This document shows positions 55,228 to 58,680 of a stretch of 64,000 bases of DNA, piece after piece. The stretch is from Nanobdellota archaeon (GTDB lineage: Archaea; Nanobdellota; Nanobdellia; Woesearchaeales; ARS49): contig JBFYLW010000003.1 in the NCBI GenBank assembly GCA_041305185.1, forward strand, positions 2,692 through 66,691, written 5' to 3'. Both the position numbers and the translations under genes were made by a program. Each line of letters opens with the position of its first letter. Within the stretch, counting starts at the first letter, position 1. The notes under the pieces are model-generated. The model made no database searches. It saw nothing but the letters and a program-made list of their open reading frames with translations, and was not told the DNA's origin.

Positions 55228-58200
55228 TTATTTGGTTGCAAGATATTCCTTGAATCCGAAGGTGGGTGAGAATTCAGGGTTTAGTCTTGCTTTCTGGTTG
55301 ACTGCCGCGTGGTGTTCCACGGTATAGTATGCTAGTTTTGGAGATAAAAAGATCGTTTTCAGCCAGGATTTGTGAATTTCAATCTTCAACTGTAGATATT
55401 TCTGGATTTCTCCGTCGGCTTCTGATAAAAGTTGGCTGTGTGCTTTTTCTAAATCAGTGTATGTCTGCGTTCTTGTTTTTTCTACTTTCTCGAAATCAGT
55501 TTTTAGCGCATTGTCTTCCTTCCATCCTGATTTGCTTCCGCAGTCCTTTTCAAGCTTCATATATTTTGTGATGTTTGCTTCAAATTCGTTTATCTTTTGT
55601 TTGAGCGATTTTGCATACTCGTAGCTCGTACTGATTGCAGTGTATTCTGAGCATAATCCATCCAGCGCTGTTCTTCTGTTGTGGAATAAGCTTTCATAGT
55701 TGGAGACTATTTGGTTGCACGTAGTGATTTGTGCTGAAACGATTTTAGCGGATGCAGAATGGTCGATTTTATATCCTGATTTCGAAAGTTTTTCCTGTTC
55801 TTGTACGTGTGTTAATATTGAGTTTGCATATTTTCTTATTTCAATTACTTTCTCTATTCCCTGTTGTGTTTCAGTTTTTATTTCGCTATTTATCCTGCTC
55901 CCTGATATTTTTATTTGTTGATTGGCATTTTGCAATTGCTTGTTTATAATCGATTCTAATGATTTTGCATATGTTTGCAAAGTTTTTGCGATGGTGTGAT
56001 TCACAAGGCCTTCATCTTGTGATACCTGGTCGTATTTGTGTTTTTGTGATAGAACTATATTGGTTGAGTCCATTATGTCGCGTCTATTTGTCTGCAAGGT
56101 ATTTTCGAATGTTCGCGGGTCTTTTTTCCAGTCATCGTAAGCCACTGTAACTTCTGGCATAAGCTTTGTTATCTTTTTTGTTGTTGATACTATGAGCAAT
56201 TCTGCAGAATTAAGCTCCTCTATTTTGTTTCTGAGATAGGTTTCATACCCTTTGATGGCTGATGATATTATTTGTTTGCTTTCTGATATTGGGGATTTGA
56301 GAGCTGCATCCTCTGATAAGTGTGTTGTTAATAGCGTTGATATTTTTTGTTCCAAAGAATCGAGTCTTGAATTCAGAGTTGTCAGTTCGCGTATTGCCTG
56401 TGTGGTGTTTCTGCTGTTTTTGCTTAGTTTCTCTGAAATGTTTTTGTATTCTTGTTGGAGGTTATTGATGAATTTGCCGAGTGTTTCTTTGAATGTGCCC
56501 TCCAGCTTTGTGAGTGTGGTTCTGTTTTTTTCGAGCGCTTGTTCAAGGCTTCTGTCTCTTCTGTAAACTTCGAATTCTGCAGCTTTTTCCCGTGCACTGC
56601 CTATTTTGCTCTTGAACGCCTCAATATTTTCTGTTGAGAATTGATTGCCAAAAAGGTCCTTGATTTCTTCGATGAACGTCTCGTGTTTGCTCGTGTATTT
56701 GTTTAACCGGTCTTCCCTGTCTTTTTTAAGCTGGTGATATGCTTGTTCTTTTTGGCTTATTGTTATTATACGCCCCTTGTCTTCCTGCGTGAAAACATCT
56801 TTCATGCTGAAATAGGTTGATGCATCGTCGATAAACTGCAGTTGTCTTTCGCACTCTTTTATCTCATTCAGTTCATCGACTGTTTCGGTTTTTCTTTCAA
56901 CTATTGTTTTTATGTTGGACAGCATTTTCTTTATTTTTGCTTCCAGGGATTCCTTCATTTCGCCAAGCTTGTTGTTTATTTTTAGGATGAGATGATCGCA
57001 GGTGTTTTTGACTGGCAATATATTGTTGTCTATATGTATCCTGCTGAGATATGAAGAAGACTCGTTTTTTATGGCAGTGATTTCCTTGTGGAATTTGATG
57101 AACTCAGTTGATGTGAGTTCTCCTGAATAGTTTGTGGCGCGGTCGAGCAGGTTTTGGAGCGTTTTGCCTGTTTCTGCCACTTTCTGGACTTTCTCGTCAT
57201 AAGCTCGGATTTTATTTTGCGCGGTTTTTAACGATTTTTCAAAGTGTTCTGTTTTGCACTCGCTTATGCTGGTCAGTGCTTTTGTTTCTTCTGCAACATC
57301 TTTTATTAATTTCTCCAACTGGGTTTTTTCTTCCAGCGACTTGCCCTCTGTTGATTCGATTGCCGTGCATTCTTTTTCCAGTTTGCTCTTGAGAGAGTCT
57401 CGTAGCTTGGTTCGTTTATCCGAAAGCGAATTAGAGATTTCTTTCACTTTTCCTTTGATTTCTTCACGTATGTCGTTTAATTCTTCAAATCCGCTCGCTA
57501 GAACTTCTTTTTCTTTAATATCAATACTTCCTTTATAAGTTTGATATATTCTAGTATATAGTGTTGGATTTCTCTCATCGGTCTGTATTTCCCCGATGTG
57601 TTTTTCCAATTCCAAAATGTCTAATTTATTCTTTGAAAGTACTGCTCTTTCCATGTTGACTTTAGAGGCATACTCGCGTAGCTTTTCGGCCAGGCCGTTT
57701 TTTATTCCGTTTAACTCTGTTATTAGCGCATCATGGTGGAATTGTTCTGCTCTTTTTATGTAGCCGTCTAAGGTGTTATAGTGGGTCTGTGCAAGGTCTT
57801 TCTGTTTCGTGCTGTTTATTCCGTTTTCGTGTTTTTTCCTTATTTTGTCGGATTCGTTTTTTATCTCGCCTGTCTCCTTGTCGAATTTTTGTTCATATTC
57901 TCTTACGATTTCCAGCAGTTTCTTTTTATCTGTGTATTTCTCAGGATTTTCTAGGAAATTCCTGGCGGGCAGTTCTCTCGGGTCGTTTTTGATGAGCGAG
58001 TAGTACGCGTCTGCTATGGTGAGTAATTTCAGTTCAAGCTTGCTGTTTAGTTTTCGTACTTGCGTTAAAATTATGTGATTTGAAAATGAATCAACGTAGC
58101 GCTCCGCAAGAATGGTCAATAGTGGATTTCTTTTTTTGGGTCTCGTTTCTGTTTTGTCCTTTTTTACCAGAACATCTGCGCTTATTTCCAATCCGTGTCT

Positions 58201-58680
58201 CTCGATTACTTCCATCGGGTGTTCATCTTTTCCGTTGATTCGCGTATATTCCTTGCATGCAACAAATAGCATCAGCAGTCTTTCCTGTCCTGCTGGTCTT
58301 TTTGTTTCTTTCAACGTGGAATAATCGAGGAGATATTCATGAAGCAGGAGTTCTTCGATGTTGCCGGGCTTTCCATCTGATTTGTCTATTCTGGCTGTTT
58401 GAGGGATTTTTTGGGCAAGTTTTTCATCGACTGCTTTTCCCGCGTCTGCAAACTCTGCAGGCCCAGTTTCAGTTTTTCTTTTTTTGGCTATTTTCTGCGC
58501 TTCTGCTGAAACCATTTCAGGATAGCTTGTTTCGAAAGATACTGGAGAAAGGAATTTTAAATCTTCAAACAGTCCGCATTGCAGCAAATCGCATGTTTTT
58601 TGAACTAAGGCATTTCTTTCGTCTTGTCCTATGTTGGGTTTATCTTTCAGAAGGTCCTGGAGTTTTTCGAATTGGCTCAT
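55228..58680 (-). CDS. giant (1150 aa) coiled-coil protein, last gene of Ubl/E1/JAB operon
   Basis: Almost entirely K/E/L-rich heptad-like sequence; 4-nt overlap with E1 gene. Confidence 0.5.
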   Translation of the reverse strand: MSQFEKLQDLLKDKPNIGQDERNALVQKTCDLLQCGLFEDLKFLSPVSFETSYPEMVSAEAQKIAKKRKTETGPAEFADAGKAVDEKLAQKIPQTARIDKSDGKPGNIEELLLHEYLLDYSTLKETKRPAGQERLLMLFVACKEYTRINGKDEHPMEVIERHGLEISADVLVKKDKTETRPKKRNPLLTILAERYVDSFSNHIILTQVRKLNSKLELKLLTIADAYYSLIKNDPRELPARNFLENPEKYTDKKKLLEIVREYEQKFDKETGEIKNESDKIRKKHENGINSTKQKDLAQTHYNTLDGYIKRAEQFHHDALITELNGIKNGLAEKLREYASKVNMERAVLSKNKLDILELEKHIGEIQTDERNPTLYTRIYQTYKGSIDIKEKEVLASGFEELNDIREEIKGKVKEISNSLSDKRTKLRDSLKSKLEKECTAIESTEGKSLEEKTQLEKLIKDVAEETKALTSISECKTEHFEKSLKTAQNKIRAYDEKVQKVAETGKTLQNLLDRATNYSGELTSTEFIKFHKEITAIKNESSSYLSRIHIDNNILPVKNTCDHLILKINNKLGEMKESLEAKIKKMLSNIKTIVERKTETVDELNEIKECERQLQFIDDASTYFSMKDVFTQEDKGRIITISQKEQAYHQLKKDREDRLNKYTSKHETFIEEIKDLFGNQFSTENIEAFKSKIGSAREKAAEFEVYRRDRSLEQALEKNRTTLTKLEGTFKETLGKFINNLQQEYKNISEKLSKNSRNTTQAIRELTTLNSRLDSLEQKISTLLTTHLSEDAALKSPISESKQIISSAIKGYETYLRNKIEELNSAELLIVSTTKKITKLMPEVTVAYDDWKKDPRTFENTLQTNRRDIMDSTNIVLSQKHKYDQVSQDEGLVNHTIAKTLQTYAKSLESIINKQLQNANQQIKISGSRINSEIKTETQQGIEKVIEIRKYANSILTHVQEQEKLSKSGYKIDHSASAKIVSAQITTCNQIVSNYESLFHNRRTALDGLCSEYTAISTSYEYAKSLKQKINEFEANITKYMKLEKDCGSKSGWKEDNALKTDFEKVEKTRTQTYTDLEKAHSQLLSEADGEIQKYLQLKIEIHKSWLKTIFLSPKLAYYTVEHHAAVNQKARLNPEFSPTFGFKEYLATK

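Follow-up and report, generated by a model that had tools for sequence, protein, structure and literature searches.

In a 64-kb stretch of DNA from a Nanobdellota archaeon (hereafter the window, meaning the whole stretch that was analyzed), we found that the gene for a 1150-residue protein (hereafter designated the giant) is an obligatory, non-enzymatic fifth member of an operon for ubiquitin-like protein (Ubl) conjugation, in which the genes are arranged in the order Ubl-like, E2-like, JAMM (JAB), E1, and giant. In every known copy of this divergent cassette, the giant, a helical protein of orphan fold, is genetically locked to the E1 gene, and it very probably serves as a dedicated structural subunit of the conjugation system. 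Sequence analysis and structural modeling together indicate a cytoplasmic, non-catalytic, all-alpha rod or bundle; its sequence bears no catalytic signature, and the invariant columns of its alignment are occupied by Leu, Asp, Tyr, and Arg, together with one Lys. The features of the giant gene are listed below.

55228–58680, minus strand: giant protein, 1150 amino acid residues (aa), an open reading frame with an ATG start and its translation; founder of an orphan family of 1070–1378 aa
58677–58680, minus strand: ATGA overlap between the E1 stop and the giant start, 4 nucleotides (nt) shared
57736–58389, minus strand: N-terminal region of the giant (aa 98–315), a predicted globular bundle of short helices; similarity detectable to about aa 360
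57211–57213, minus strand: codon of K490, a candidate Ubl acceptor, in the motif K-I-x-x-Y-x-x-x-V

Linkage of the giant gene to E1

A phmmer search of 1.84 billion representative proteins returned five relatives of the giant (P0012–P0016; about 20% identity, 1070–1378 aa, one truncated), all of which, even the weakest (P0016, E = 2e-4), are encoded directly after an E1 gene. Homologues of the E1 amount to a handful (43–82% identity), and a member of the giant family was located directly 3′ of E1 in 10 of 10 independent loci with this E1 clade; the loci named in this count are the window, L020, L003, L007/L019, L004, L006, L008, L010, and L015, duplicates having been merged (L008 with L009, L016, and L018; L015 with L017). 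The full gene string, that is, proteins of about 140 and 400 aa, a JAMM protein of about 550–650 aa, E1, and the giant, is present in the window, L003, L004, L006, L008, and L010, and the shorter contigs L007/L019, L020, and L015 (L017) contain the start of the giant after E1. The order seen in the window for the 144-aa, 404-aa, 632-aa JAMM, and 530-aa E1 genes recurs at six other loci. Because the giant directly follows E1 in all ten loci and every giant homologue is so placed, its functional coupling to the E1, JAB, and Ubl genes, as proposed in the first-pass annotation of this DNA, is strongly supported, and the same synteny speaks against a coincidental operon arrangement, which that annotation had named as the outcome that would undo its proposal.

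The ten loci range from 25 to 65% in GC content and include a metagenome-assembled genome of Woesearchaeota (L004) and a locus binned as an uncultured Methanosarcinales archaeon (L008). The window also comes from a Candidatus Woesearchaeota archaeon, its hydrogenase sharing a 90% cluster with MBW3016405.1. The GC-rich loci L003 and L007 may be bacterial, since L003 has a neighbor of the extracytoplasmic function (ECF) type of sigma-70 factors and both have a HerA-like neighbor. Thus, the giant–E1 linkage is maintained across a wide divergence, covering archaeal bins and perhaps bacterial contigs over the whole of this GC range. The family is rare. A scan of a genome collection with the giant retrieved nothing, a word-index homology search returned the giant itself alone, and scans with the E1 profile gave three loci in genomes and two in metagenomes, all of them duplicates of known loci or of each other, with no copy of the cassette among viral contigs.

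The giant gene is real, as had been claimed. It is an ATG-initiated frame on the minus strand with homologues in other genomes, the probability that 1150 codons stay open by chance at 39.5% GC being about 1e-33 by our own arithmetic, and its ratio of nonsynonymous to synonymous substitution rates (dN/dS) is 0.26 relative to the L020 orthologue. In this orthologous pair (E1, 82% identical; giant compared over residues 1–448, 65% identical), the corresponding values are 0.12 for E1 and 0.27 for the C-terminal half of JAB; the giant is under purifying selection, evolving at about twice the rate of E1. Mean pairwise identity across the loci is lowest for the giant (18%), followed by the E2-like protein (23%), Ubl (24%), JAB (26%), and E1 (36%). 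The reported 4-nt overlap with the E1 stop was also seen: the boundary reads ...TTGGAATGAGCC, in which the giant ATG lies on the E1 TGA as ATGA at 58677–58680 (letters across the E1 stop and giant start, GGAATGAGCC). Where measured, the E1–giant junctions are −4, −4, −4, −4, 0, +1, and +8 nt, with −4 nt in both the window and L020.

In composition, the giant contains 12.4% K, 11.0% E, 10.2% L, 7.7% T, 7.7% I, 7.4% S, and 5.3% N, so that its earlier description as K/E/L/N-rich holds for the first three residues and not for N. The homologues from the GC-rich loci (62–65% GC) contain 1.6–2.2% K, 12–13% R, and 12–16% A; since they are rich in R and A instead, the K/E richness of the giant is an effect of genome AT content. 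In agreement with the annotation, no transmembrane segment was found in the giant (the highest Kyte-Doolittle mean over 19 residues is 0.83), and no signal peptide was found either. Moreover, a regular-expression search of the 1150 residues for Walker A (GxxxxGK[ST]), Walker B (hhhhD[DE]), LSGG, CxxC, and HExxH came up empty, bearing out the absence of Walker motifs noted previously.

Fold and conservation of the giant

The AlphaFold2 model of the full-length giant, built from a six-sequence alignment, is all-alpha with 79% helix and consists of about 35 helices of 20–53 residues (longest, 53) with short loops between them; stretches of low confidence or disorder are located at residues 32–110, 357–408, and 590–646. 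Fourier analysis detected a 3.5-residue hydrophobic periodicity above that of shuffled sequences (z > 3) in the patches of about 421–532, 533–616, 701–812, and 981–1050 alone, that is, about four heptad-periodic patches making up roughly one third of the length. The giant is thus modeled as a helical-bundle rod of unknown fold, not as one long two-stranded coiled coil. The wording "almost purely heptad-like" in the first-pass annotation was an overstatement, the helices being broken at 53 residues or fewer and the periodicity being patchy, and the coiled-coil label, right as to helicity, is too simple for a fold of some 35 short helices. In being all-alpha, with successive helices of 25–50 residues and short loops, the predicted rod resembles spectrin/alpha-actinin-type rods and other helical-repeat scaffolds, but the matches to alpha-actinin are weak (7a8t and 1hci; Foldseek E = 0.2–1.1) and none is significant.

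The N-terminal region, modeled separately as aa 98–315, gave a better result than the full-length chain, with a predicted local distance difference test (pLDDT) score of 77.9 and a predicted template modeling (pTM) score of 0.68. This region holds the invariant residues L112, L220, and D224 and the motif (V/I)(A/V/I)DAYYS, and partial homologues were detected through residues of about 86–459 (phmmer; 86–354 for P0013 and 120–459 for L019). Identity per 50 residues is alike along the whole length of the giant (0.13–0.28).

No known family was recognized by sequence or by structure. Matches of the giant in Pfam, NCBIfam, PADLOC, and PHROGs were all sub-threshold noise, such as the Pfam Apolipoprotein model (E = 0.095; 12.8 bits versus a cut-off of 90), LmuB/JetC of PADLOC (E = 0.055–0.06), and a single PHROG of 61 positions and unknown function (E = 0.0055). 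Profiles of the full-length giant and of its N-terminal region found nothing meaningful among PDB sequences. When the full model was compared with the PDB by Foldseek, there was no match at E < 0.001, the hits being generic helical repeats, dynein tails, and the alpha-actinin rod; the aa 98–315 model likewise had no match (best E = 1.5), and cullin-like, Atg-like, or other scaffold folds were not matched by the giant. In BFVD, the full model aligned with long helical proteins of the tape-measure or tegument type (best E = 9e-5), with TM-scores below 0.1 and a root-mean-square deviation (rmsd) of 46 Å. An hhalign comparison of seven segments of the giant gave one pair at 74% probability, on which we make no claim of internal repeats.

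Conservation was evaluated with six full-length sequences representing about five independent lineages. Fourteen positions are invariant (L112, L220, D224, Y337, L455, K490, D551, Y648, D709, L712, L823, Y995, R1002, and D1056), and none of the conserved columns is Cys or His; judging from this alignment, a catalytic role of the RING, HECT, or RBR type is therefore excluded. Because the invariant positions are spread over aa 112–1056 and the N-terminal region is modeled as a domain, the combined sequence and model data argue for a specific folded architecture, not a spacer.

K490 is the one lysine that all six full-length giants have in common. Three columns are Lys in all four giants from AT-rich or mid-GC loci, and K490 alone among them stays Lys in both GC-rich giants. 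Moreover, 28 columns are Lys in three of the four AT-rich or mid-GC giants, and in none of the 28 is Lys kept in either GC-rich giant, where 11 are replaced by Arg in both and 6 by Arg in one. Since K490 survives this loss of lysine, the alignment indicates that position 490 must require the lysine side chain specifically. We tentatively propose K490 as a possible acceptor site for the Ubl.

The neighboring conjugation genes and known systems

The genes preceding the giant in the operon are as follows.

63776–64000, minus strand: orphan gene of 492 aa, of which the last 75 codons are in the window; overlaps the Ubl start by 4 nt
63345–63779, minus strand: Ubl-like candidate, 144 aa, ending ...PPGEG-G139-LERKL
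62094–63308, minus strand: E2-like candidate, 404 aa, with invariant C276 and C335
60199–62097, minus strand: JAMM/MPN metalloprotease, 632 aa, with the MPN domain at aa 1 to about 270 and a long, helical, K/P/E-rich, poorly conserved C-terminal half
58677–60269, minus strand: E1, 530 aa, matched by Pfam ThiF in two stretches (6e-30)

The E1 is composed of an N-terminal degenerate (inactive-type) adenylation domain (loop VFGLDHLG) and a C-terminal active one, in which G279, G281, A282, N285, R314, Q315, and D390 are invariant; its candidate catalytic cysteine (C477 in QGQSC) is present in all homologues. No C-terminal ubiquitin-fold domain (UFD) was found in the alignment, the protein ending about 40 residues past GSVSMGNQ. 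Among proteins of solved structure, the E1 profile is closest to the eukaryotic UBA6, UBA1, and UBA7 (E = 6e-16), which are matched in two stretches in the inactive-then-active order and outscore MoeB, ThiF, Cap2, and other prokaryotic E1-like enzymes. By these sequence criteria, the adjacent enzyme is assigned as a compact, Uba1-like two-domain E1 in a DPANN archaeon; like the eukaryotic enzymes, it unites an inactive and an active adenylation domain in a single chain, but it is half as large and lacks FCCH, SCCH, and UFD. Its start is probably at 60269 (530 aa) and not at 60155 (492 aa, the public gene call), because residues 1–38 align with invariant positions of the homologues. With this start, the E1 gene overlaps the 3′ end of the JAMM gene out of frame by 71 nt (60199–60269), and overlaps of 11–62 nt are found at this junction in other loci.

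In the JAMM protein, E25, H85-x-H87, S95, and D98 are invariant and fit the pattern E...HxHx7Sx2D (motif HGHGKINVFYSDID at residue 85), and among solved structures its profile is best matched by Rpn11 and CSN5 (E = 0.015–0.05), with the motif aligned; Pfam gave no match for the 632-aa protein. The occurrence of these two proteins extends eukaryote-like two-domain E1s and Rpn11/CSN5-like JAMM enzymes, as identified from their profiles, into DPANN archaea.

In the C-terminal third of the 404-aa protein, the motif H-P-A-T..(10)..L-C335-I-x-G calls to mind the HPN...Cys of E2 enzymes, and from this we infer that the protein is E2-like. Pfam scans of all members and profile searches of the PDB gave no match for it, and hhalign comparisons with E. 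aridi BilB, R. sophoriradicis BilB, and human UBE2D2 were insignificant; the alignment with E. aridi BilB places the Cys of the two proteins in line, at a probability of just 0.2%. The 144-aa protein is taken to be a Ubl-like precursor, in view of its invariant G139 and the 2–8 variable residues that follow the conserved Gly in the six homologues, and it has no match in Pfam or PDB and no significant one by hhalign. In type II BilA, a conserved Gly is followed by up to nine residues (10.1101/2023.09.26.559546). The labels "JAB" and "Ubl" of the first-pass annotation are consistent with these motifs (the JAMM residues, and the invariant Gly with its short tail) and have motif support only. K38 of the Ubl-like protein is also invariant and kept in the GC-rich homologue; it may be a chain-forming or E1-contact residue. 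Taken together, the genes surrounding the giant carry, at the level of sequence motifs, intact active-site residues for a working cascade.

Beyond the window edge, a contig of the same organism (L011, 6072–9093) continues with the 492-aa orphan and then a 513-aa ClpX/HslU-like AAA+ ATPase (AAA, AAA_2, and ClpB_D2-small; ClpX in the PDB, E = 5e-22). Homologues of this ATPase adjoin the cassette in five of the six loci with a known upstream region, including L004, L006, L003, and L010. To our knowledge, ClpX is not usual in archaea, and a ClpX-like unfoldase there would be unusual.

Bil, Bub, and the Cap2/Cap3 proteins of CBASS are recognized relatives of eukaryotic ubiquitination, and what defines their targets is mostly unknown. 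We know of no scaffold or E3-type partner described for a four-gene cassette of the Bil type. For type II Bil proteins, dedicated Pfam models exist (DUF2604 and Metal_CEHH). BilABCD, an anti-phage system of types I and II described as a four-gene operon, shares with the operon in the window the gene order Ubl, E2, deubiquitinase (DUB), and E1 (10.1101/2023.09.26.559546; example, L021). They are also alike in the conserved Gly of the Ubl (a candidate in the window) with its short tail, presumably removable in the window as well, in a JAMM-type DUB, and in a single-chain E1 of about 515–550 aa that lacks a UFD and combines an inactive with an active adenylation domain. In contrast, the example operon L021 contains neither a giant helical gene nor a ClpX-like AAA+ gene, the proteins in the window are 2–5 times larger (404 versus 205 aa for the E2-like protein and 632 versus 121 aa for JAB), and the hosts of the window-type cassette include DPANN archaea. 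When the profiles of the type II Bil operon and the window were compared by hhalign, the probabilities were 0.2% for Ubl, 0.2% for E2, 1.1% for JAB, and 73% for E1, the last over 56 columns of the Rossmann fold; in PADLOC, the cassette had no match except for generic E1-E2 models on E1 (2e-11). As far as profile comparison can tell, the cassette proteins are not detectable members of Bil.

Type II CBASS likewise combines prokaryotic E1/E2 and JAB functions (Cap2/Cap3) and conjugates an operon-encoded protein. However, E1 and E2 are fused in Cap2, and the CD-NTase takes the place of a separate Ubl as the protein that is conjugated, whereas the cassette in the window has no CD-NTase and its giant has no equivalent in CBASS. 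A search of the literature on prokaryotic Ubl operons, Bil, Bub, and archaeal systems, which left most subscription journals outside its reach, disclosed no giant helical partner and no such cassette. The statement that E1, JAB, and Ubl genes coupled to such a giant are not a described architecture thus stands with respect to Pfam, NCBIfam, PADLOC, PHROGs, and the literature searched. Collectively, the sequence data point to a Ubl-like conjugation operon that has an obligatory component new to such systems and of orphan fold, present in a few DPANN archaea and perhaps also in bacteria.

Possible roles of the giant and the flanking genes

We consider that the giant may be a dedicated helical platform that is itself tagged at K490, similar in logic to cullins or Atg5/Atg16, although we place somewhat less than even confidence in this proposal. 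The cullin is a helical-repeat scaffold neddylated on one lysine and de-neddylated by the JAMM enzyme CSN5. The likeness of the proposed system to cullin-NEDD8-CSN5 and Atg12-Atg5/Atg16 would lie in a helical, non-catalytic scaffold, modification of one lysine with a Ubl, and reversal by a JAMM enzyme; cullins, Atg5, and Atg16 have no similarity to the giant in sequence or fold, and no homology is claimed.

In such a mechanism, the JAMM protease would trim the Ubl tail to expose G139, E1 would adenylate the Ubl and load it onto C477, and the E2-like protein would accept it onto C335 as a thioester. The giant, presumably made in step with E1 because its start codon overlaps the E1 stop, would be a built-in platform, with its N-terminal domain docking the E1/E2 machinery. 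The Ubl would then be attached to K490, the lone invariant lysine, and the tagged rod would recruit or organize downstream factors, for example the ClpX-like unfoldase, until the JAMM protease reverses the mark. Between conjugation target and scaffold, the two roles first suggested for the giant, the choice is still live, with some support gained for the target from the invariance and Lys specificity of K490. A further extension, in which the operon would be a self-contained machine to tag, unfold, and untag, with the Ubl on K490, the giant as platform, the ClpX-like unfoldase, and the Rpn11/CSN5-like JAMM protease, is a speculation that we regard as improbable.

Several points weigh against the platform proposal. 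Overlapping genes are frequent in the compact operons of archaea, and translational coupling of this kind is not in itself proof of a complex; the full-length model of the giant is of modest confidence (pLDDT 65, pTM 0.31). Motifs and gene order are all that identify the E2-like and Ubl-like proteins. The acceptor idea is drawn from one alignment column in six sequences, and the lysine may be invariant for another reason.

Should the giant prove to be a scaffold modified by the Ubl, regulation of the cullin type would have its first analogue in prokaryotes; in any event, the giant is a candidate, open to experiment, for the substrate or adaptor still missing from such a system, with K490 as a single residue to mutate. 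The tag, unfold, and untag machine, if true, would be a prokaryotic counterpart of the logic of cullin neddylation or of the proteasome lid in genome-reduced DPANN archaea, exchanged with apparent bacteria, and would bear on the origin of scaffold-based ubiquitin signaling and of the two-domain E1.

The giant could instead be an E3-like adaptor or sensor, whose N-terminal region binds the charged E2-like protein and whose long, fast-evolving helical body captures other proteins for tagging, for example those of viruses or host cells, the cassette then being a defense or conflict system like Bil. This role, the main alternative and yet rather unlikely in our estimate, would fit the synteny equally well, and it would agree with the giant being the most divergent member of the cassette (18% versus 36% identity for E1) with twice the dN/dS of E1, as well as with the rare and patchy occurrence of the family, a pattern typical of conflict systems, over 25–65% GC on contigs that are archaeal or possibly bacterial. 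The neighbors of L003, an ImmA-like helix-turn-helix/Peptidase_M78 protein and a HerA-like protein, point in the same direction, and a precedent is provided by Bil systems, which reportedly attach their tag to a tail protein of the phage (10.1101/2023.09.04.556158). However, RING, HECT, and RBR signatures and conserved Cys or His are lacking in the giants, and the divergence of the giant is nothing special, the Ubl (24%) and the E2-like protein (23%) being almost as divergent; its dN/dS of 0.26 gives no sign of positive selection at this resolution. Furthermore, the flanks in the window are housekeeping genes without PADLOC matches, no copy was found on viral contigs, and the Lys specificity of K490 would be left unexplained.

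A less probable role, to which we give little credence, is that of an effector, that is, an inert helical protein that acts directly once its assembly, aggregation, or membrane association is triggered by the Ubl or the ClpX-like unfoldase. The cassette has no other obvious effector domain, the giant has amphipathic helical patches and the weak apolipoprotein-like Pfam match (E = 0.095), and bacterial Ubls have been reported to oligomerize or form filaments (10.1101/2024.11.21.623966). Against this, the apolipoprotein match is far under the threshold (12.8 versus 90 bits), and the giant shows neither a transmembrane or strongly hydrophobic segment nor similarity to toxins, nucleases, or pore-formers.

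An SMC/Rad50-like or cytoskeletal coiled-coil element, as the first-pass annotation had suggested, is very improbable. The giant is indeed large and highly helical and gives very weak alignments with LmuB/JetC in PADLOC (E = 0.055–0.06), but its heptad periodicity is patchy, no helix is longer than 53 residues, hinge and head domains are absent, and no match to SMC, Rad50, or intermediate filaments was obtained in Pfam, PDB sequences, or Foldseek. We rejected the SMC/Rad50-like assignment on the absence of ATPase motifs (Walker A/B and LSGG), of long arms, of a hinge, and of CxxC (zinc hook).

That the giant is an unrelated neighbor (a surface, S-layer, or viral tape-measure-like protein) with a coincidental overlap is scarcely credible and was rejected on the conserved synteny (all ten loci, in genomes that differ widely); the BFVD matches do include tape-measure proteins (best E = 9e-5), but signal peptide, transmembrane segment, surrounding viral genes, and viral contig matches are all absent, and PHROGs gave the one match of unknown function (E = 0.0055). 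A tape-measure or viral structural identity was likewise rejected, there being no significant PHROG, TM-scores below 0.1 (rmsd 46 Å), and cellular neighbors.

The GC content of the cassette (0.37–0.43 over 55228–64000) lies within that of the window (0.35–0.45), with no compositional anomaly, and the downstream flanks encode housekeeping functions (NAD(P)H-hydrate dehydratase, a thioredoxin-reductase-like protein, HypC, a radical SAM protein, and [NiFe] hydrogenase), so that the cassette is not in a recognizable defense island in the window. No tRNA or Rfam features were found within the 64-kb window, and a promoter and terminator scan, made with bacterial-type models on DNA of an archaeal host, was no better than with shuffled sequences.

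Immediately after the giant, at 54296–55155 on the minus strand, a 263-aa reading frame (54296–55087) is probably over-long; the public annotation gives here a 90-aa DUF5676 protein with two transmembrane segments (54883–55155; Pfam, 3.8e-6) and then a 188-aa protein. These two genes are not conserved after the giant elsewhere. On the upstream side, L008 (589–4749) has no AAA+ gene and instead has, upstream of Ubl, five tandem paralogues of 165–251 aa and a thioredoxin-domain protein. In two Woesearchaeota loci (L011, 338–5960; L004, 125–3602), a conserved, divergently transcribed cluster stands beside the AAA+ gene and contains a 94-aa protein, a TPR protein of 222–226 aa, and an orphan of about 820 aa, to which L011 adds genes of 135, 160, and 443 aa. 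In L003 (15024–19283) and L007 (5260–7311), the genes after the giant encode an orphan of 503 aa and a HerA/FtsK-like ATPase of 911 aa (PADLOC HerA, 3e-10), a pair that is conserved between the two loci.

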